Virus record (IMG/VR): IMGVR_UViG_2061766007_000215
DNA: 56,176 nt
Source: an uncultured virus (IMG/VR IMGVR_UViG_2061766007_000215)
Taxonomy: Duplodnaviria > Heunggongvirae > Uroviricota > Caudoviricetes
Reading direction: 5' to 3' (one strand)
Shown here: piece by piece, positions 12,023-53,500 of the stretch
How positions within the stretch are numbered: the stretch's first letter is position 1
How the letters are laid out: every line of letters starts with the position of its first letter
The notes under the pieces: model-generated
The model's input: the letters and a program-made list of their open reading frames with translations, nothing else
Databases searched by the model: none
Told to the model about the DNA's origin: nothing
Position numbers and translations under genes: made by a program

Positions 12023-12850
12023 TCAATCCCCAAAGTACTTAGTTGCTATGTTGACTATCTCTTTACCCGCTTTACTTGCCACCTCTTTTCTATTTATACT
12101 ACTAAGTGAATCCTCTTGGAAATCATAACATTCAAGGAAAAATCCAACCTCACGCCAAAACTTAATTACGTTCATGAACTGATGACGTTCTTTGATTCTC
12201 GGTAAACGAAACTCTATCGTATTATCATGTTGAACGTTTACAAAGTTCGAATGATTTTCGGGATAACTATTATTGTCGATTTTGCAAGCGTAATGTCTAA
12301 AATTAGAACCGAATTTTGAAATTATCCACTCACTATCATGACTACTGATATAGTAGTAAAGCGGTAAAAATATCGAATGATAGTAACGTCTGATATACTC
12401 TATCTTGCTTGTGCTTGTGTGTATATGTGCGCCTGTATTGCTTGTAAAGTATACAAAAGCATCTTCGTTATTCTGTAATACTTTTGAAATGTGCGCAAGT
12501 CCTCGCATCTTCGGACTAGGTGCTTCACCACCACACACGGTGCAATCCGATTCGAAACAATACCCGACACGTTCAAGCGTACCTCTAAAACGCTGGTATA
12601 TCTCATCTTGTATATTGGCGTCAACTTCTATCTCGACACCTACTAATTGATTTGTAAGTGGCATTTTTTTATGCGTACCGATATAGTCGGCTCTGTATGT
12701 ATCACTATCGTGATACTCTTCGAAACTAAGTGCATGGTCATCGCAAAATACACGCATTCCTCTTCCTCTCACGTAACGACGGAAACCGTTACCACCTTCG
12801 ACTACACAATTACATACTAAGCAATGTCCTCTGTTAATGTTACGTTCCAT
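12023..12850 (-). CDS. Putative amidoligase (COOH-NH2 ligase type 2) with N-terminal Zn-binding motif
   Basis: GVEIE, ESDCTV, EAPSP, GAHIHTS and TIEFR motifs. Confidence 0.75.
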   Translation of the reverse strand: MERNINRGHCLVCNCVVEGGNGFRRYVRGRGMRVFCDDHALSFEEYHDSDTYRADYIGTHKKMPLTNQLVGVEIEVDANIQDEIYQRFRGTLERVGYCFESDCTVCGGEAPSPKMRGLAHISKVLQNNEDAFVYFTSNTGAHIHTSTSKIEYIRRYYHSIFLPLYYYISSHDSEWIISKFGSNFRHYACKIDNNSYPENHSNFVNVQHDNTIEFRLPRIKERHQFMNVIKFWREVGFFLECYDFQEDSLSSINRKEVASKAGKEIVNIATKYFGD

Positions 12851-14985: not shown

Positions 14986-15173
14986 TAAATCACCTCTCTT
15001 AACTTTTCCATTTCAACATCTAACATATCACCAAATTGTAGTTCTTTATTATCTTCAACCGCCTCAAACACCATACGCTGATAATTTCTTTTAGCGGAAT
15101 CGTGACGTTTCATATTCGATTGATAGACCGCCTCAACTACATATTCATTTGGCACAAATCCACATCTATACAT
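14985..15173 (-). CDS. Small hypothetical protein
   Basis: Translationally coupled ORF. Confidence 0.6.
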   Translation of the reverse strand: MYRCGFVPNEYVVEAVYQSNMKRHDSAKRNYQRMVFEAVEDNKELQFGDMLDVEMEKLREVI

Positions 15174-16237
15174 TATACCGCCACTCCATTTACTGTTCCT
15201 ATTACCGCATTAGAACAAAGCCTATTTGATGTTATTATACCATAATGTAAACCATTTGCATTTGTCAAGCCACAGTTAACCGTAACAGGAATCGTTGAAT
15301 TAATTGAATTAACATCAAGTGTAATACCTTCTGTATTAGTATTATCTACTGTCGCAGTTACTCTTTCAGTAAAATATTCCTTTTCAAATATCTTAGCCAT
15401 CTTACGACCTGCCTTAATAGCCGCCTGTTCATTACACCCACGGCTAATATAAAACGTGTTAAGAGCCTTAAAAATCTTCTTAAATGTCTTTAAGAATCTC
15501 ATATACTGTACCGCACTTGTAAATCTAGGCATACGGATTTCAAGTGTATAGCGGTGCTGAATATTTATCCAATTTTCATGTCTATCGGGGCATGAATAGG
15601 AAAGTGACCTGTTATAATTCTCAAAATCTCTACCAAAAATTTCTTCACGCTTTTCCGCAGACATATTATTAATCATATCATTAAGGGGCTTGAAAAGATT
15701 TTCATAATGTTCATAAAGGTTTCTAAAATCATAATGATTATCAATAAACCCATAATGAGTATGAATACCGCAGTTCTCATTGTTTACTGAAAACTGATAG
15801 TTATGGTTATTATTCATGTATTCAATAGCCCCGACAATCTTAGCAAGTGGCAACTCACTTGTGTAAATAGGACTTTTATACTCAATATCTACTGTGCTAT
15901 CATAAGTCGGCAGAAACTTATTCTTTACAAAATAAGCCCTTGCACTTGTAGACCTACCCATAGATTCAAGTTCTATAGATATTGAAATACCATCAGCGTT
16001 TCCCTTGCCTACTCTAATAGTGTTTTCATCACTATAATCATTAAGGTTATTTTTACCTCTATGTGCGCTACACATCCACACACCATTCTTCTGACTAGGT
16101 ATGGTAACTCTCTTACCTCCAAGCGCAATACTTGTTACAGTACCGCACTCTACACAATGACCACTTGTAGGACGACCATTCTGTGAGTTCATAGGATTTG
16201 TTCTATAGTTCTTATAATTAAGTGTTGTATTCGGCAT
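15173..16237 (-). CDS. Second putative amidoligase (COOH-NH2 ligase type 2) with N-terminal Zn-binding motif
   Basis: SIELES, DSTVxxEYKSP, CGIHTH and TLEIR motifs; own promoter. Confidence 0.7.
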   Translation of the reverse strand: MPNTTLNYKNYRTNPMNSQNGRPTSGHCVECGTVTSIALGGKRVTIPSQKNGVWMCSAHRGKNNLNDYSDENTIRVGKGNADGISISIELESMGRSTSARAYFVKNKFLPTYDSTVDIEYKSPIYTSELPLAKIVGAIEYMNNNHNYQFSVNNENCGIHTHYGFIDNHYDFRNLYEHYENLFKPLNDMINNMSAEKREEIFGRDFENYNRSLSYSCPDRHENWINIQHRYTLEIRMPRFTSAVQYMRFLKTFKKIFKALNTFYISRGCNEQAAIKAGRKMAKIFEKEYFTERVTATVDNTNTEGITLDVNSINSTIPVTVNCGLTNANGLHYGIITSNRLCSNAVIGTVNGVAV

Positions 16238-22723: not shown

Positions 22724-23043
22724 TTAAGCGTGTATATTATATGTTGGATAAAATTTTTTAATATATTTAGTTTCTTCATCAAATAATAAATCTTTATTAT
22801 TTACTATTTTTAATACACCAAATCTTATTTGTTCTTTTAATAAATAAGCATTATATAATATTTTATACATTGGTAAATTAATATTTGAACATTTATTAAA
22901 ATTTTTATTATTATTTAATATACAATATTTATGTTGTAGAAATCTTTTAGCAATATTTTTACTTTGACCAATATAAATTAATTCATCTCCTAAATAAATA
23001 CCATATATTCCCATAATTTTATAAGGTATTAATATATTATTTA
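22724..23043 (-). CDS. GIY-YIG nuclease, copy A (5' end in gap)
   Basis: GIYGIY...YIGQSKNIxxR...E...YN. Confidence 0.8.
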
Positions 23044-23974
23044 NNNNNNNNNNNNNNNNNNNNNNNNNNNNNNNNNNNNNNNNNNNNNNNNNNNNNNNNN
23101 NNNNNNNNNNNNNNNNNNNNNNNNNNNNNNNNNNNNNNNNNNNNNNNNNNNNNNNNNNNNNNNNNNNNNNNNNNNNNNNNNNNNNNNNNNNNNNNNNNNN
23201 NNNNNNNNNNNNNNNNNNNNNNNNNNNNNNNNNNNNNNNNNNNNNNNNNNNNNNNNNNNNNNNNNNNNNNNNNNNNNNNNNNNNNNNNNNNNNNNNNNNN
23301 NNNNNNNNNNNNNNNNNNNNNNNNNNNNNNNNNNNNNNNNNNNNNNNNNNNNNNNNNNNNNNNNNNNNNNNNNNNNNNNNNNNNNNNNNNNNNNNNNNNN
23401 NNNNNNNNNNNNNNNNNNNNNNNNNNNNNNNNNNNNNNNNNNNNNNNNNNNNNNNNNNNNNNNNNNNNNNNNNNNNNNNNNNNNNNNNNNNNNNNNNNNN
23501 NNNNNNNNNNNNNNNNNNNNNNNNNNNNNNNNNNNNNNNNNNNNNNNNNNNNNNNNNNNNNNNNNNNNNNNNNNNNNNNNNNNNNNNNNNNNNNNNNNNN
23601 NNNNNNNNNNNNNNNNNNNNNNNNNNNNNNNNNNNNNNNNNNNNNNNNNNNNNNNNNNNNNNNNNNNNNNNNNNNNNNNNNNNNNNNNNNNNNNNNNNNN
23701 NNNNNNNNNNNNNNNNNNNNNNNNNNNNNNNNNNNNNNNNNNNNNNNNNNNNNNACATTTACAACATTTTGTGGTATAATATAATCAAGATACAAAATAT
23801 TAAAGAAAGGAGATGTGATTTCCGTGAGTTGGTATTATGATGAAACCAACCCCGTAAAAGAAAATGATATGTTTAGATTATATGAATTATATGACGAAGA
23901 AACTGATAGCATTAAATATACAGAAGAAGAACTTGAAATAATAGAACGAATTAAGAAGTCGGGGAGTTTAAGTT

Positions 23975-28829: not shown

Positions 28830-29222
28830 TCAATAGTGTATATTATAACGTGGCTTAAATTTATTAATATATTTATTTTCTTCATACAATAATGAATTTT
28901 TATCATAAACGACTTTTAATATACCAAAATAAATATTTTTCTTTTCTGAATATGCTTTTCTTAATGCAACATATATAGGTAAATAATCATTATTATATTT
29001 TTTACGCTTCTTTTCATTTTTTAGAATATAATGTTTATGTGTTTCCCATCTTTCTCCGATGTTTTTACTTTGTCCAATATATATTAATTCTTTATCTATA
29101 TATATACCATATATACCCATAATATTATAAGGTTCTAATAATTTTTTCATTGAAACTCCATATTTTTCTTTAGTATTAATAATGTCATTAAAACTAAGTA
29201 ATTCTATTACACCTAATGTCAT
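28830..29222 (-). CDS. GIY-YIG nuclease, copy B
   Basis: GIYGIY...YIGQSKNIGERW...EENKYI...PRYN. Confidence 0.85.
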   Translation of the reverse strand: MTLGVIELLSFNDIINTKEKYGVSMKKLLEPYNIMGIYGIYIDKELIYIGQSKNIGERWETHKHYILKNEKKRKKYNNDYLPIYVALRKAYSEKKNIYFGILKVVYDKNSLLYEENKYINKFKPRYNIHY

Positions 29223-33589: not shown

Positions 33590-34783
33590 ATGTGTAATAT
33601 AAAAAGATTTGACGGAGAAACAGAAGAAGAACTGTTATATCGTGTAGGTCAAAGAAAAGAAGAAATTGGTACATGGGAAGATATAGCCGACCTTATGAAT
33701 ACTTTATTAGGATATGATTATGGTGAGGCTAAATATCGTAAACAATATGCTATTATTAAAAAAATTTATGATAATAGCGAACCTTGTTCTGACGAAGAAT
33801 ATTTAAATGAATTACAAGAACTTAAACAAGAACTAAAGTCTGAAAGAATAAAGATACAAACTCTTAATCTTGAAAGAAACAAGGTTGATAGAATAGGTGC
33901 TAGACAAGAATTATTTTATGAACAAATAGGACAATATATTCAATCAAGAGAAGTTCCTAAATTAGAACCTAAGTATTTACCAAGAAATAAGAGAATGAAA
34001 TATTTATTAGGTATTGCAGATATTCATGCAAATGCTTATTGGAAAACTGCAACTAATGAATATTCCATGAAAATAGTTAAAGATAGATTATCTTTGCTTT
34101 TAACTGAAACAATATCTTTTATTAGAGAAAAACAACTTGATGAATTAAATATTATTCTACTTGGTGACCTTATAGATGGTTGTTTAAGAATGTCTAATTT
34201 ACAAGCAATGGATTCAACTGTTTCAAAATCCGTTGCCGATATATCCGATATGTTAATTGGATTTTTGGAGGTTCTTGTAGAAAAAACCCATATACATATT
34301 AATTTATTTGATGTAATATACGGAAATCATTCTATGCCTAGGTTTTTACAAAATTATGATGTGCGTGAAGATTTAGGATATACAATACATAGATATATTA
34401 AGACGGGTATTAGAAATAATAAAAATATTGATATGTTTTCACCTCTTGATGGAGATATGTATTTAGACTTTAAAATATGGGATTTTGATATTATAGGATT
34501 TCATGGTCATACTGAAAAGAACCAAAGTGAAGCAATAAAGAATTTTACAATTCAACGTAGAAAACTTTATGATTATTCAGTATGTGGACATTTACATTCT
34601 AATCAAAAAACAGGTGTATCATTAGATGGTTACCACGATGTAGAAAATATTCAATTTCCAAGTTTTTGTGGCGATGACCCATATTCTAATTCAATACATA
34701 AAATCTCAAAAGGCTCTTGTATGATATGTGGCTTTGATAAAGATTTTGGATTTATTGAAAGTCATAAAATAATTTTGAATTAG
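33590..34783 (+). CDS. Calcineurin-like metallophosphoesterase (YonJ-like), copy A
   Basis: DIH, GDLID, GNH, HGH and GHLH motifs after an N-terminal coiled coil. Confidence 0.85.
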   Translation: MCNIKRFDGETEEELLYRVGQRKEEIGTWEDIADLMNTLLGYDYGEAKYRKQYAIIKKIYDNSEPCSDEEYLNELQELKQELKSERIKIQTLNLERNKVDRIGARQELFYEQIGQYIQSREVPKLEPKYLPRNKRMKYLLGIADIHANAYWKTATNEYSMKIVKDRLSLLLTETISFIREKQLDELNIILLGDLIDGCLRMSNLQAMDSTVSKSVADISDMLIGFLEVLVEKTHIHINLFDVIYGNHSMPRFLQNYDVREDLGYTIHRYIKTGIRNNKNIDMFSPLDGDMYLDFKIWDFDIIGFHGHTEKNQSEAIKNFTIQRRKLYDYSVCGHLHSNQKTGVSLDGYHDVENIQFPSFCGDDPYSNSIHKISKGSCMICGFDKDFGFIESHKIILN

Positions 34784-35150
34784 TATTGACATTTGTTAAA
34801 TTATGTGTTATAATGTTAATGTATCAACAAAGTAACGTACTTGCAAGCGTGAAAGTTGTTTACATACAAAAGATTTGTGAATTTGTTTGCAAGACAAACA
34901 CAAAGATTTTGTTTTACGTGTGAACGGATTATTCCCTGTATCGTGTACATTAGGTCACGATACCATTCTAGGTAGGGAATTTCCTATTAACTCAAAAGAA
35001 AATAAAATTAATTCACTATTTGNNNNNNNNNNTAAAAATGTAGGTCGCAAATATAGAGAAAAATTGGCTAATTCTAAAAATGGTAATAAGTTTAAGAATA
35101 TTGTGGATTTGCTAAAAATAGCAAACAGTAGAAAAGAGGTTTAATATATT

Positions 35151-35349: not shown

Positions 35350-36549
35350 ATGTGTGATATAAAAAGATATGATGGTGAAACAGAAGAAGAACTGTTATAT
35401 CGAGTAGGTCAGATGAAAGATGAAATCGGCTCTTGGGAGGCGGTTAAGGATATTATGAATGAACTACTTGGTTATGATTATGGTGAAGCCAAATATCGTA
35501 AACAGTTTGCCGTTATGAAGAAAGTTATGGAAAATAGTAACTTAGGCTCTGCTTCTGATGAAGAACACCTTAATAGTCTTAAAGAACTTAAAAAGGAATT
35601 AAAGTCTGAAAGAATAAAGTTACAAACACTTAATCTTGAACGTAATAGACTTGACAGAGAAGGTGCAAGACAAGAATTATTCTATGAACAGATAGGGCAA
35701 TATATTCAATCAAGAGAAGTTCCTAAATTAGAACCCAAGTATATGCCCCGAAATAAAAGAATGAAATATTTGTTAGGTATTGCAGATATTCACGCTAACG
35801 CTTATTGGAAAACCGCAACTAATGAATATTCAATGAAGATAGTTCAAGATAGATTGTCTTTACTTTTAACAGAGGTAATATCATTTATAAGAGTTAAGCA
35901 ATTAGACGAATTAAACATTATTCTACTTGGAGATTTAATAGACGGATGTTTAAGAATGTCTAATCTACAGGCTATGGATTCAACAGTTTCAAAATCTGTT
36001 GCAGATATATCCGATATGTTAATAGGCTTTTTAGAAGTGCTTGTAGAAAAAACTCAAATACATATTAATTTATTTGATGTAGTATATGGAAATCATTCTA
36101 TGCCTAGATTTTTACAGAATTACGATGTGCGTGAAGATTTAGGATATACAATACATAGATATATTAAAACAGGTATTAGAAATAATCAGAATATTGATAT
36201 GTATTCCCCGCTTGACGGAGATATGTATTTAGACTTTAAGATATGGGATTTTGATATAATTGGTTTCCACGGGCATACAGAAAAGAATCAAAGTGAAGCA
36301 ATAAAAAACTTTACAATTCAACGCAGAAAACTTTATGATTATTCAGTATGTGGACATTTACACTCTAATCAAAAGACAGGGGTTTCATTAGATGGTGTTC
36401 ACGATGTAGAAAATATTCAGTTCCCAAGTTTCTGTGGAGATGACCCGTATGCTAATTCAATACATAAAATATCAAAAGGTTCTTGTATGATATGTGGCTT
36501 TGATAAAGATTTTGGATTTATAGAAAGTCATAAAATAATTTTGAATTAG
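35350..36549 (+). CDS. Calcineurin-like metallophosphoesterase (YonJ-like), copy B
   Basis: Same motifs as copy A. Confidence 0.85.
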   Translation: MCDIKRYDGETEEELLYRVGQMKDEIGSWEAVKDIMNELLGYDYGEAKYRKQFAVMKKVMENSNLGSASDEEHLNSLKELKKELKSERIKLQTLNLERNRLDREGARQELFYEQIGQYIQSREVPKLEPKYMPRNKRMKYLLGIADIHANAYWKTATNEYSMKIVQDRLSLLLTEVISFIRVKQLDELNIILLGDLIDGCLRMSNLQAMDSTVSKSVADISDMLIGFLEVLVEKTQIHINLFDVVYGNHSMPRFLQNYDVREDLGYTIHRYIKTGIRNNQNIDMYSPLDGDMYLDFKIWDFDIIGFHGHTEKNQSEAIKNFTIQRRKLYDYSVCGHLHSNQKTGVSLDGVHDVENIQFPSFCGDDPYANSIHKISKGSCMICGFDKDFGFIESHKIILN

Positions 36550-36585
36550 TATTGACAAATGATAAATAATATGGTATAATGTTAA

Positions 36586-37082
36586 TGTATCAACAAAGTA
36601 ACGTACTTGCAGACGTGAAAGTTGTTTACATACAAAAAGATTTGTGATATTGTTTGCAAGACAAACACAAATGTTTTGTCATTCATAGTTAAAGCCCTCC
36701 TTTCTCTATGATTTATGTGCGAACGGATTATTCCCTGTATCGTGTACATTAGGTCACGATACCATTCTAGATAGGGAATTTCCTATTAACTCAAAAGAAA
36801 ATAAAATTAATTCACTATTTGATTTTTTCTTACCTATAATGGTTCTTTTATTCAAATGGTACATAGATTAAAAGTCAAAGGGTTATTGATAATAAAACCC
36901 AAGGTAATGTTTGCTCTCATTGATAAAGAGTTCGTTTACATTCCATATATAAGTAGTAGGCGTGGTGCTAGTATGGGTTCGATTCCTATACCTACAATAT
37001 CCCATACCATATGAGATAGCCATATTGATTATGGTTGTGAGCCACGATGGGTGAAATAACAGTAACCCATTGTGGTGAGCGT
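36586..37082 (+). ncRNA. Candidate ~500-nt multi-hairpin RNA (partial copy 34821-35022)
   Basis: Follows promoter TTGACA 36552 / TATAAT 36575; chain of hairpins including a T-loop hairpin; no credible ORF. Confidence 0.55.
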
Positions 37083-37102
37083 AAATAAATAAGGAGGTCA
37101 AA

Positions 37103-37444
37103 ATGGTTAAATTTCTTGATAATTTTGGAATTAAAGCCACAAAAGGTGATACTATAATTTTTCCTTTTGTTGTTGTAAATAATGATAAACAAATATATCA
37201 AGTCCAAGCAGGTGATGTAATTAATTTTGGACTTAAAAAAAATTATGATGATGCCGAATGTCTTATAGAAAAGACTATAGATAATACCACACTTACTTTA
37301 GTGTTAGAACACGCTGATACAAAAGACCTTGAAGTAGGTGCGTATTATTATGATATTCAGATAACAAAAGCGGCAAATAATGAAGTTCACACTTTTATTA
37401 GTGGTATTATAAGTATTACTAATGAAGTTTATGATAAAGACTAA
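37103..37444 (+). CDS. BppU-N-terminal-like beta-sandwich protein (partial second copy 37588..37870)
   Basis: KGDT...DTxxLxVGxYxYDIQIT...VxTFISG pattern. Confidence 0.6.
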   Translation: MVKFLDNFGIKATKGDTIIFPFVVVNNDKQIYQVQAGDVINFGLKKNYDDAECLIEKTIDNTTLTLVLEHADTKDLEVGAYYYDIQITKAANNEVHTFISGIISITNEVYDKD

Positions 37445-38020
37445 GAAACCTTTCTTAGATTTTTTCTCATACGCATCGCCTCCCTTCAAAGATGCAGGTC
37501 GGATATAAGACTTAAAACTATATCGAGAGGTCGGTGTGGGTAGCGACCATAATCTACCCACCACACATTAGGCATTANNNNNNNNNNCCCTTTTGTTGTT
37601 GTAGATAATGATAAACAAATATATCAAGTCCAAGCAGATGATGTAATTAACTTTGGGCTTAAAAAGAATTACGATGATGCCGAATGTCTTATAGAAAAGA
37701 CTATAGATAATACCACACTTACTTTAGTGCTAGAACACGCTGATACAAAAGACCTTGAAGTAGGTGCATATTATTATGATATTCAGATAACAAAAGCGGC
37801 AAATAACGAAGTTCATACTTTTATTAGTGGTATCATAAGTATTACTAATGAAGTTTATGATAAAGACTAAGAAACCTTTCTTAGNNNNNNNNNNNNNNNN
37901 NNNNNNNNNNNNNNNNNNNNNNNNNNNNNNNNNNNNNNNNNNNNNNNNNNNNNNNNNNNNNNNNNNAAAGGGCTGACTACCAAATGGTAGTTGGCTCTTT
38001 TGAAATTAAAGGAGTTACTT

Positions 38021-42196: not shown

Positions 42197-43015
42197 ATGG
42201 GATTACTTGATAAAGAAGTTTATGTGGGTGTAAATAATAAAAAATATTATATAGAAAAAGGATATAAAATTCCTACTATAGAAAAAACTTACTATTATAA
42301 AAATGGTAAAAAAGATAGAACTAGAATTATTACACCTAAAGGAACTAAGATTAAAGTAAAAATAGAAGATATACCATTACAAAGTATGGTAAAAGTAAAC
42401 GTTCAATGTGATTGTTGTAAAAGAATTTATAAAACAAAATATCAAGATTATTTTAGACAAAATCATAATGGTAAAATATATTGTAATAAATGTGCAAATA
42501 CAATATTATTCACAGGAGAAGATAACCCAAGATGGAATAATAATTTATCACAAGAAGAACGTATTAATAAAAGAAAAACCGATAAAGATGTAATATGGAA
42601 AAAGAAAATTTTTGCAAGAGATAAATATACTTGTAGAAAATGTGGTAAACAATCTAATCTAACCGCACATCATTTAAATGGATATAATTGGTGTGTAGAA
42701 GAAAGATATTCCATAGAAAATGGAGTTTGCTTATGTGAAGATTGTCATAAAAATTTTCATAGTACATATGGTTATGGAAACAATACAAAAGAACAATTTA
42801 TTGAATGGTTTGGCAAGGATTTAAAGTTATTATCCTATAATGGGAAAATAAAAACTTGTAAAGTTGCCTATTGTATTGAAGATGATGAGATTATATATAA
42901 TATAAAACAATATGCCAAAGAAAATGGATTAGATGATAGTTGTATATATAATGTTTGTAATGGTAAACAAGGTACACATAAATCTAAACATTTTATATGG
43001 TATAGAAAGGAATAG
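42197..43015 (+). CDS. Free-standing HNH endonuclease (one strain only)
   Basis: RDKYTCRKC...HHL...NGVCLCEDCHKNFH; Zn ribbon; C-terminal HTH-like tail. Confidence 0.85.
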   Translation: MGLLDKEVYVGVNNKKYYIEKGYKIPTIEKTYYYKNGKKDRTRIITPKGTKIKVKIEDIPLQSMVKVNVQCDCCKRIYKTKYQDYFRQNHNGKIYCNKCANTILFTGEDNPRWNNNLSQEERINKRKTDKDVIWKKKIFARDKYTCRKCGKQSNLTAHHLNGYNWCVEERYSIENGVCLCEDCHKNFHSTYGYGNNTKEQFIEWFGKDLKLLSYNGKIKTCKVAYCIEDDEIIYNIKQYAKENGLDDSCIYNVCNGKQGTHKSKHFIWYRKE

Positions 43016-50721: not shown

Positions 50722-51696
50722 ATGAACAATAAAAATAAATATATTGGTTTGACGAATAAAATGAATTGTGGTATGAGTTGTACAATAATTGATTTTCGTA
50801 ATACCAAAGATATAGATGTTCAATTTGAAGATGGTAATATTATTAAAAATAGAAATTATTACTGTTTTTTAAAAGGAAAAATATTAAATAATAATTTTCC
50901 GCATAATTGGACTAATATAGAAAATTTAATTAATAAACGTTTTAGTCGATGGAAAGTAATTAGTTTTGATAAAAATTCAAATAATAACATAGCACATTGG
51001 ATATGTCAATGTGAATGTGGAACTATTAAAAGTGTTGCGGGTAGAGATTTAAAAAACGGAAAAAGTAAATCTTGTGGTTGTTTAAAAAACGAATTAGCAT
51101 CAATAAGAAGTAGAAAAAACACAAAAACAAATAAACTTAAAGAAAAATATCCCGAATTAATTAAATATTTAGTAAATAAAAATGATAAAGAATTAACTTT
51201 ATCAGTAACCAATAATATAAAATGTATATGCCCTATATGTAATACTTATAAAACATATAGTAGTATGAGAACATTTGTTGCATATGGATTTACTTGTCCT
51301 AATTGTTCATCTAAAATTTCTTATCCTAATAGATTTATGTTTAAAGTTTTAAATCAGTTAAATATTGAATTTAAAACAGAAAAAACATTTAAATGGTCAA
51401 ATAAGAAAAGATATGATTTTTATATTCCTAGTTTGTCTTGTATAATAGAAGTGCAAGGAAATCAACATTACAGAGATAGCCAATGGTCTAAAGTGGAATA
51501 TCAACAACAAAATGATAAATTAAAAGAAATTTTGGCTTTATCTAATGGAATAAAAATATATATACAATTAGATTGTAAAAATAGTGATTTTAAATATATG
51601 AAACAATCTATTTTAAATAATGATAAAGTAAATAAATTATTTGATTTATCTAAAATAGATTGGGATGCAATAGAAAAAGAACTAAAGGAGGTATAA
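50722..51696 (+). CDS. Free-standing putative homing endonuclease (Zn ribbons plus PD-(D/E)XK/Vsr-like domain)
   Basis: WICQCECG...SKSCGC, CPIC/CPNC, RYDFYIP...IIEVQGNQHY. Confidence 0.75.
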   Translation: MNNKNKYIGLTNKMNCGMSCTIIDFRNTKDIDVQFEDGNIIKNRNYYCFLKGKILNNNFPHNWTNIENLINKRFSRWKVISFDKNSNNNIAHWICQCECGTIKSVAGRDLKNGKSKSCGCLKNELASIRSRKNTKTNKLKEKYPELIKYLVNKNDKELTLSVTNNIKCICPICNTYKTYSSMRTFVAYGFTCPNCSSKISYPNRFMFKVLNQLNIEFKTEKTFKWSNKKRYDFYIPSLSCIIEVQGNQHYRDSQWSKVEYQQQNDKLKEILALSNGIKIYIQLDCKNSDFKYMKQSILNNDKVNKLFDLSKIDWDAIEKELKEV

Positions 51697-52579: not shown

Positions 52580-52666
52580 ACAGACAGGACAGAGGGTTGC
52601 AAACCTTTTCTATCTTTTCTCCCAAAGATAGATTACTGTCTGTAAAATACATTGGGAGATAATATT
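52580..52666 (+). ncRNA. Three-way-junction RNA leader with loop-RBS pairing, copy 2
   Basis: Begins at the predicted start of promoter TTGACA 52545 / TATAAT 52568. Confidence 0.7.
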
Positions 52667-53500
52667 ATGAGTGATAGAAAATATTGTGTGTATAAACATA
52701 CTTCTCCATCAAATAAGGTTTATATTGGAATAACTTTTAATCCAAAAAGACGTTGGTATGATGGAAATGGTTATTTACATAAAAGAAAAGATGGTAAATA
52801 TAATCAACCTTTATTTGCAAGAGCAATACTTAAATATGGTTGGGATAATTTTGCTCATGAAATTTTAGAAGATAATCTTTCCAAAGAACAGGCTTGTGAA
52901 TTAGAGAAAAAATACATACAAGAATACGATTCTACAAATCCACAAAAAGGATATAATATTTCTTTTGGTGGAGATATTTTAATGTATGGAAAAATCCATT
53001 CAGAAGAAACTAGAAAATTACTTAGGCAAAAAACACCTAAAAGTAAAGATTATTATAGAAGTATTAATCAATACGACCTTGATGGTAATTTTATAAAAAC
53101 TTGGAAAGATAGTTCTGAAATATATGATAGTGAATTTAAACCATATTGTGCAGTTATAAAGAAATGTTGTTATAGACAAAAACATTATTTAACTGCTTGT
53201 AATTATCAATGGCGTTATATTGATGATTGTGAAGATATAGGTAAATTATGCAAAATAAAACCACCAACTAAAGTTAGACAACTTTATGAAGTTAATCCTA
53301 TAAATGGTGATATAATAAAACATTATAATTCTATAACGGAATGTAGTAATGAATTAAATTTATCATTTAGGAGAATAATGGATTGTTGTCGTGGTGTAAC
53401 AATATCGGTTGATAAACGTTTATTTATCTATGTAGAAGATTATGATTCTACATTAAATGAAAGATTAATTAGATATAATAATAAATATAGGCATAATTAA
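52667..53500 (+). CDS. GIY-YIG homing endonuclease with NUMOD-type repeats (one strain only)
   Basis: CVY...VYIGIT..PKRRW...E...GYN; HSEET; INQYDLDGNFIKTW. Confidence 0.85.
   Translation: MSDRKYCVYKHTSPSNKVYIGITFNPKRRWYDGNGYLHKRKDGKYNQPLFARAILKYGWDNFAHEILEDNLSKEQACELEKKYIQEYDSTNPQKGYNISFGGDILMYGKIHSEETRKLLRQKTPKSKDYYRSINQYDLDGNFIKTWKDSSEIYDSEFKPYCAVIKKCCYRQKHYLTACNYQWRYIDDCEDIGKLCKIKPPTKVRQLYEVNPINGDIIKHYNSITECSNELNLSFRRIMDCCRGVTISVDKRLFIYVEDYDSTLNERLIRYNNKYRHN

Follow-up and report, generated by a model that had tools for sequence, protein, structure and literature searches.

The window, that is, the whole 56,176-nucleotide stretch that was analysed, carries on its + strand a transcription unit whose RNA may function as a phage pseudo-antitoxin, wherein one module, hairpin 2 (37468-37495), base-pairs with the mRNAs of host type I toxins. 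The probability of this reading is estimated at roughly 45%. The observations that bear on it are covariation in the + strand pseudoknots, a modular build, conservation of the hairpin 2 guide without a minus-strand open reading frame (ORF), and a computed preference of this guide for toxin start regions. In the proposed mechanism, the unit would be transcribed by the host polymerase from a sigma-A-type promoter. The open C-rich loop of hairpin 2 would bind first, and pairing would then extend over the spacer and the AUG, covering the ribosome binding site (RBS) and start codon of host TxpA-like (Hol_Tox) mRNAs. A downstream element, pseudoknot b, may make a second contact at a leader site that is normally paired with the 3' end of the toxin mRNA. 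The phage would gain by keeping host toxins silent, because unstable native antitoxins would decay once host transcription is disturbed. A wider version is proposed more tentatively: the unit would serve as an RNA cassette for anti-defence, transcribed by the host polymerase and carrying swappable modules, which would include a two-site antisense RNA silencing host type I toxin mRNAs at the 5' leader as well as at the start codon, further guides against other toxins (hairpin 1) and pseudoknot decoys.

Genomic Setting

The window is a gapped scaffold (31 N gaps) in which two strains, A and B, of one phage are mixed, and strain duplicate blocks within it share 78-97% identity. Sequence comparison identified a strain A copy of the promoter and first RNA block at 34786-35022 (+) with hairpin 1 missing; this copy stems from the two-strain scaffold and is not a genomic duplication. 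This rumen phage is SPbeta-like in gene content, which includes an 867-aa protein that matches phrog_8308, which we take to be a YonO-type RNA polymerase. The metagenome runs that match the phage best are bovine and other gut samples. Three genome bins of relatives are all Bacilli (Coprobacillaceae, Ca. Colivicinus and a Bacilli bacterium), binning of phage contigs being only a weak guide to the host. Genes for HNH and GIY-YIG homing endonucleases are found at 42197-43015, 50722-51696, 52652-53500, 22724-23758 and 28830-29222, some of them within the packaging/head region.

A phosphoesterase/exonuclease-family gene (35350-36549, phrog_284) lies ahead of the unit, and the terminase and portal genes come next. 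Retrieval through the phosphoesterase yielded 20 loci, six of which contain the unit (L001-L005 and L018), with distant loci among those listed without it. Clusters of 110, 170, 67 and 80 proteins point to many further ENA/Logan contigs of this phage group. Another assembly, G001, is apparently a second assembly of the same sample and was left out of independent counts. A blastn search of the region against phage records matched the promoter only. Scans of viral contigs with protein queries returned 0 loci, and scans of viral contigs with DNA patterns returned 0, 4 and 14 matches, those found being ordinary gene starts or unrelated.

Organization of the Unit

The unit consists, in order, of a promoter, a structured RNA of about 500 nt, a decayed tRNA, a gene for a 113-aa protein, a second RNA block and a terminator-like hairpin. 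The promoter (36552-36580, +) is a 12/12 match to the sigma-70/A-type consensus with an extended -10, with +1 predicted near 36587, and it is also present in strain A (34786-34814) and L001. Such a perfect promoter suggests that the host polymerase transcribes the unit. The initial annotation had called the region late, a label that is doubtful because the unit begins at this host-type promoter with its extended -10.

Block 1 (36587-37090, +), which carries hairpin 1, is structured (z -3.7 against shuffles). Its fold is better than that of 100/100 shuffles, with -127.9 for the + strand vs -106.6 for the - strand, and the + strand folds better in 8/9 stretches tested. The first two hairpins of block 1 (36590-36625 and 36635-36680, +) both have a TTGCA(A/G) loop, which is kept in L004 (6265-6345) and L005 (2370-2450) while the stems differ; these loops could be anticodon-like or kissing loops. 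The first hairpin also contains an AAAGTA/GAAA internal loop that, in our judgement, resembles an S-turn.

Searches with Rfam covered the window at the gathering score, the region at E<=10 and 12 loci, and the sole matches were tRNAs in relatives. ARAGORN called no tRNA within the window. An acceptor-like stem and T arm remain at 36956-36996 (+), where no full cloverleaf is formed; in L005 this position is occupied by an intact tRNA-Met. This remnant has no anticodon arm and is variable in sequence, with the T arm kept in L002 and L003; it might act as a processing site through which the modules are released. The embedded gene (37103-37444, +) belongs to phrog_1084, a family with function unassigned in PHROGs. 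The terminator-like hairpin with A and T flanks (37967-38001, +) was recognized by eye, while the scanner made no call; it follows pseudoknot b by about 15 nt in L001, L003, L018 and G001, and in the window a second-strain duplicate and a gap separate the two.

A contig from a sheep RNA run covers 36593-36879, starting 6 nt past the predicted +1, at a depth of 3.6; this run is unstranded and also covers coding DNA at a depth of 2. RNA-run contigs over the unit have depths of 2-4 and are likewise unstranded with coding DNA included.

Structure and Conservation of the Two Hairpins

Both hairpins lie exactly where the initial annotation had placed them. Hairpin 1 (36683-36711, +) pairs TCATAG (36683-36688) with CTATGA (36706-36711) and has an anti-AUG arm and an anti-SD core. 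Hairpin 2 (37468-37495, +) pairs GCATC (37473-37477) with GATGC (37491-37495), and its guide (37468-37490) is complementary to the SD-spacer-AUG of Hol_Tox genes. The preceding CAT that had been reported for hairpin 2 is present at 37468-37470, and the antisense ORF that it opens is 9 aa long in the window. The predicted loops of these hairpins are open and C-rich, complementary to SD sequences. Hairpin 1 is the more stable of the two (-7.4 kcal/mol, z -5.3); it had been thought to expose a whole 10-mer, and the prediction retains an open CCCUC but encloses the remainder with an inner AAAG/CTTT stem. Hairpin 2 has a weak stem (-6.0, z -1.3) and an open 13-nt loop.

The occurrence of both hairpins is beyond chance. 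Among 20,000 dinucleotide shuffles of the 637 non-coding bases, the P values were 0.0004 for at least two occurrences of CAT.{7,10}CCTCC (two observed), 0.0001 for CCTCC[CT]TT (two observed) and 0.0002 for CCTCCTTTCT (one observed), for patterns that were picked post hoc with the sequence already seen.

The guide CATA(C/G)GCATC..CCTCC of hairpin 2 is kept in 7/7 relatives that cover the site, with the CAT 8-9 nt before CCTCC in 5/6. In L004 and L005 (77-79% protein identity) the enclosing stem differs and the guide sequence is kept. Conservation of a sequence while its stem changes is the pattern expected of a pairing guide. The exact pattern of hairpin 2 was found in 1/121 and 13/201 genomes, mainly inside genes; the remaining matches comprise a pair of short upstream ORFs and a hydrophobic ORF of 27 aa. 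The L004 guide gave only chance matches against plasmids.

Predicted Pairing of Hairpin 2 with Toxin Start Regions

Small Bacillota toxins carry leaders of the type to which hairpin 2 is complementary. The Hol_Tox family (PF16935) was chosen ahead of testing, and loci of this family were found in only 12/201 genomes of the order of the Coprobacillaceae bin and in 15/151 Clostridia genomes. The PF16935 loci retrieved are txpA/RatA-like, with convergent 3' overlap and 5'-3' pairing. Removal of four doubtful or shifted loci (L115, L116, L119, L139) and one for which no start was found (L149) from the 42 loci, followed by merging of duplicates, left 28 start regions. For comparison, 756 ordinary starts were taken from two such genomes (800 kb of sequence). 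Extreme SDs have been reported for TxpA and YonT (PMC3531473), and SD-matched controls matter because toxin starts have such SDs; these controls number only 16.

The sequence GG(T/C)GATGC or GAG(T/C)GATGC occurs at 9/28 Hol_Tox starts, which are homologous and hence non-independent, vs 2/756 ordinary and 0/16 SD-matched starts. Where GGYGA is present, TGC continues in 8/15 Hol_Tox starts vs 2/90 ordinary ones. The predicted pairing energy of the window guide has a median of -25.0 kcal/mol for 21 toxin starts, compared with -17.4 for the 16 SD-matched starts, and the best duplex (L136) involves 22/23 nt at -36.8 kcal/mol; the start regions that match best belong to Clostridia toxins. When the 5' portion of the guide was shuffled, 0/300 versions were as good for the window, L003, L018 and L004 guides, and the L005 guide did not pass this test (28/300). 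When all 100-120 RNA windows were scanned against whole toxin mRNAs, hairpin 2 ranked first. In a best-of-all-windows control, the toxin median was reached by 0/200 ordinary Clostridia starts and by 5/200 (4/63 GC-matched) starts of the Erysipelotrichales order. The L004 guide was no better on Erysipelotrichales toxins than on controls (58/200), and this allele therefore does not fit those toxins. In trans, extended complementarity to toxin mRNA is thus seen for hairpin 2 only, at Hol_Tox start regions. The antisense guide function that had been proposed for both hairpins is consequently retained for hairpin 2, with a target class that the initial annotation had not named, and not for hairpin 1, which shows nothing beyond the SD.

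The most serious competing explanation, though an unlikely one, is that the unit is a generic anti-SD small RNA whose loops imitate the 3' tail of 16S rRNA and dampen any mRNA with an extreme SD, toxins scoring well only by having the strongest SDs. The 16S-tail motif itself pairs with Hol_Tox starts at a median of -18.5 vs -10.75. Relative to the 16S tail, however, hairpin 2 gains 4.6 kcal/mol on toxins and loses 1.5 on SD-matched controls, and the anti-AUG spacing is kept, which also argues against such an RNA.

Less probable still is regulation of the phage's own genes by these loops, e.g., of a 354-aa gene (15173-16237, -) with a paralogue at 12023-12850. The start of this gene at 16237 (-) has an unusual SD ending GGAGGGC, and several guides are predicted to bind it with energies of -19 to -25 kcal/mol. 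Nevertheless, none of 170 candidate phage starts from the partial phage genome pairs beyond the SD, and the best phage-start pairing of the window guides is -20.7 (hairpin 1) and -22.0 (hairpin 2) vs -25 to -37 for toxins. The 354-aa gene gave no Pfam, PHROG or NCBIfam match and was not found in G001-G003 or the fetched loci.

For the pseudo-antitoxin reading, the state of the target is also relevant. The SD of the full-length toxin mRNA is mostly paired in prediction, and the unpaired probabilities of the two target sites are 0.02-0.11 and 0.21-0.37; binding would therefore need nascent or trimmed mRNA. In favour of the reading, Hol_Tox genes were sought in G001-G003 and none was found. A leader pattern gave 14 matches in 6/86 genomes and 3 in a reversed control, and 14/14 were then found to be followed by Hol_Tox-like ORFs; having been written after the toxin leaders were seen, this pattern speaks to motif specificity and is not independent support.

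In genomes of Clostridia and Erysipelotrichales, the GGAGGCGATGCCTATG-type leader (L058, L060, L023, L056) also begins upstream ORFs of 7-16 aa before other genes, as well as one hydrophobic ORF of 27 aa that has a terminator. The occurrence of this leader at other loci counts against the pseudo-antitoxin reading. A multi-copy Hol_Tox family (L108-L125, L209-L222) reaches up to five copies per Erysipelotrichales-order genome and has a conserved leader of about 100 nt with predicted 5'-3' pairing; one member searched against NCBIfam gave no match.

Hairpin 1

Hairpin 1 is present in strain B, L001, L002, L018, G001 and 4/4 DNA-run contigs, and absent from strain A, L003, L004 and L005. Its reported absence from the other strain holds precisely, as strain A (34770-35022) misses exactly those 32 nt within flanks that are 92% identical. 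On Hol_Tox starts it shows no gain over the SD (45 and 22 of 300 in the shuffle test). A search for its target with <=2 mismatches matched 5/301 Erysipelotrichales-order genomes, none at a toxin; the five matches include an IS21-like transposase, a relaxase, a GTPase and one gene, L042, with one mismatch. The consensus target was found in 0/301 Clostridia genomes, no target was found in viral contigs or among the 170 phage starts, and Fst families were found in 0/151 and 0/96 genomes. The designation of hairpin 1 as an antisense guide thus lacks specificity beyond the SD as well as a match in these searches. Pairing in cis with the SD of the 113-aa gene was considered and rejected, as it amounts by eye to only about 7 bp. 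Hairpin 1 and the L004 guide share CATAG-N5-GCCCTCCTTTCT and may therefore be sister modules. Hairpin 1 probably serves as another exchangeable guide, its putative target being a different mRNA with a very strong SD.

Pseudoknots and a Candidate Second Site

Three H-type pseudoknots in the 30-60-nt monomer class, with covariation, were identified on the + strand. Pseudoknot a (37496-37524) has 7/11 pairs covarying among 4 sequences, pseudoknot b (37529-37561) has 3/13 pairs covarying among 5 sequences, and pseudoknot c (36874-36900; 5+5 bp) shows a compensatory change in L001 and L018 and is replaced in L002. The pattern of pseudoknot b was not found in G003.

Pseudoknot b sits 50 nt downstream of hairpin 2, and its 3' half is complementary to a motif in the toxin leader (5+9 bp in L003-L005, with one mismatch and wobbles in the window). 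This motif precedes the start by about 85 nt in 13/18 Erysipelotrichales toxin loci and is found in 0/24 Clostridia loci, and in 800 kb of host DNA it occurs only at two toxin genes. The order of the second site and hairpin 2 is antiparallel to the toxin mRNA. With the window RNA and that of L003, cofolding predicts a duplex at both sites, and with L018 it does not, the duplex having about -20 kcal/mol, an energy that is overstated since pseudoknots are left out of the model. In three lineages the second site ranks with the best windows. In a multiple-window control the window allele fails, with 31/150 ordinary leaders (18/34 GC-matched) as good, and L003 alone passes (2/150; 1/34 GC-matched). 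Within the toxin mRNA, the site forms part of a predicted 5'-3' helix, so that most of it is paired when the full-length molecule is folded. Taken together, these sequence matches are suggestive of pseudoknot b as a second contact with the toxin leader.

The same motifs raise the improbable alternative that block 2 derives from a toxin leader that was captured in inverted orientation and has lost its ORF, the minus-strand SD-ATG being a functionless relic. The minus strand does bear both toxin-leader motifs in toxin order. Against this, the motifs persist without an ORF across lineages at 77-79% protein identity, the covarying pseudoknot pairs include G-U pairs valid on the + strand only, and no minus promoter exceeds 10/12. 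A capture origin is compatible with the pseudo-antitoxin reading.

It is about as improbable that the modules act like type III pseudo-antitoxins by decoying proteins (ribonuclease toxins or factors that bind the ribosome), with the C-rich loops as binding or cleavage sites. Three short H-type pseudoknots with strong covariation would suit such a role, and host ToxI, CptI and TenpI repeats are also pseudoknots (PMC5086642). The upstream regions of 25 ToxI, 4 CptI and 5 TenpI loci, compared by eye, nevertheless differ from the phage pseudoknots in geometry and sequence, the host elements having a shorter stem 1 or a much longer loop 3. Tandem identical repeats are absent, as are tandem near-identical repeats of the ToxI/CptI/TenpI type. 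Mimicry of a type III antitoxin was therefore rejected as a candidate, with no match by eye among the 34 host upstream regions and no Rfam ToxI match.

Minus-Strand ORFs

No conserved small hydrophobic toxin ORF lies opposite either hairpin. The minus-strand ORFs facing hairpin 1 are 34, 34, 18 and 34 aa long, and those facing hairpin 2 are 9, 55, none, 9, 6 and 54 aa (i.e., 18-34 aa, and 6-55 aa or no start). These ORFs gave no PHROGs or NCBIfam match, and the best minus promoters (10/12) equal those of shuffles. The initial annotation had described a 34-aa ORF (36582-36686, -) as lacking a start and frameshifted in the other strain. Its loss from strain A is borne out. The ORF is the end of a 55-aa minus-strand ORF (36749-36582), the strain A counterpart of which is open and 44 aa long. 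This longer frame runs uninterrupted in the two strains of the window and in L018, and is cut or shifted in L001, L002 and L003 (3/4 relatives). A cis-encoded type I toxin-antitoxin pair, in which hairpin 1 is the true RBS of the 34-aa toxin and the + strand RNA its antitoxin, is very improbable: the ORF is intact in the window, L001 and L018 with a strong and correctly spaced SD, but L002 keeps hairpin 1 with an ORF of 18 aa, strain A and L003 lose the ORF, 1-nt indels are tolerated, and there is neither a family match nor a good minus promoter. The 34-aa frame is therefore regarded as a shadow ORF, and the toxin-antitoxin proposal is set aside, as the minus ORFs vary in length and lack a family match.

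Relation to Known RNAs

The pseudo-antitoxin reading has a precedent in phage PhiTE, the pseudo-ToxI of which is likewise a non-coding RNA and has been proposed to counteract a toxin-antitoxin system of the host (PMC3475682). Pseudo-ToxI imitates an antitoxin of type III, with the toxin protein as its binding partner, whereas pairing with type I toxin mRNA is predicted for the present unit, which also, unlike pseudo-ToxI, has no tandem repeats.

The candidate targets of hairpin 2 belong to the same toxin class as those of RatA/txpA and SR4/bsrG, whose native antitoxins are cis-encoded and overlap the toxin 3' end, as described in PMC3531473 and PMC4147584. RatA is reported to have no complementarity to the initiation region. 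Unlike RatA and SR4, the phage RNA would act in trans, has no adjoining toxin gene and is complementary to the start region and to the leader at the 5' end.

ROOL, which was discovered in cow rumen, and GOLLD are described in PMC5737381 as large structured RNAs near phage tRNAs. The present unit differs in being a loose string of exchangeable modules and not one conserved fold. Neither ROOL/GOLLD nor other Rfam covariance models matched at the gathering score or at E<=10. Single modules of the unit may be listed in the RNA-motif catalogues of PMC5737381 and later phage surveys.

The C-rich loops of Staphylococcus aureus RsaE and RNAIII seed on SD sequences. The unit resembles these RNAs in directing C-rich loops toward SDs and differs in being phage-borne, with strain-variable modules, toxin mRNAs as predicted targets and no Rfam match. 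Racr, viral crlRNA and vsgRNA are described as phage RNAs that counter host defence, similar to the role proposed here, but they act on CRISPR-Cas proteins or cas genes, whereas the candidate targets of the unit are toxin mRNAs.

Phage RNA mimicry has been described for type III antitoxins and CRISPR RNAs. In the literature search, mostly judged by title and the start of the abstract with subscription papers outside its scope, no case turned up of a phage directing antisense RNA at a type I toxin of its host. PMC3531473 leaves the role of chromosomal Bacillota type I toxins unclear, and hok/sok, cited in PMC12548467, is the one phage-exclusion case found. A phage RNA shaped to silence toxin start regions would argue that Bacillota type I toxins defend against phages. 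If the wider cassette reading is true, type I systems would have their first known phage pseudo-antitoxin, and there would be direct evidence for TxpA-like toxins in phage defence.

Exchange of Modules

The suggestion that the unit is built of exchangeable modules is upheld by the comparison of strains, in which hairpin 1, a 17-nt hairpin and a 32-nt pseudoknot come and go. The 17-nt hairpin, just behind hairpin 1, is present in L002 and 4/4 DNA-run contigs, with a compensatory variant in L003. L018, G001 and three DNA-run contigs lack pseudoknot a through a deletion of 32 nt that is bounded by 7-nt repeats. The four DNA-run contigs over hairpin 1 have <=3 substitutions among the rows listed, and the region of hairpin 1 tolerates 1-nt indels.

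Block 2 of the L004 (7260-8035)/L005 (3060-3655) clade is 600-800 nt long, with extra pseudoknots and more tRNA-like pieces. These block 2 sequences gave no Rfam match, the lone match in the clade being the tRNA in block 1 of L005. One of the extra pseudoknots has a GGTG/CACC stem that resembles host ToxI repeats. A conserved three-stem element with a TTG(C/T)(A/G)AG loop and an AGCGT tail occurs at 37006-37082 (+), at 6640-6710 in L003 and at 3478-3545 in L005; it precedes the 113-aa gene in the window and lies in block 2 in L005, and modules therefore also move.
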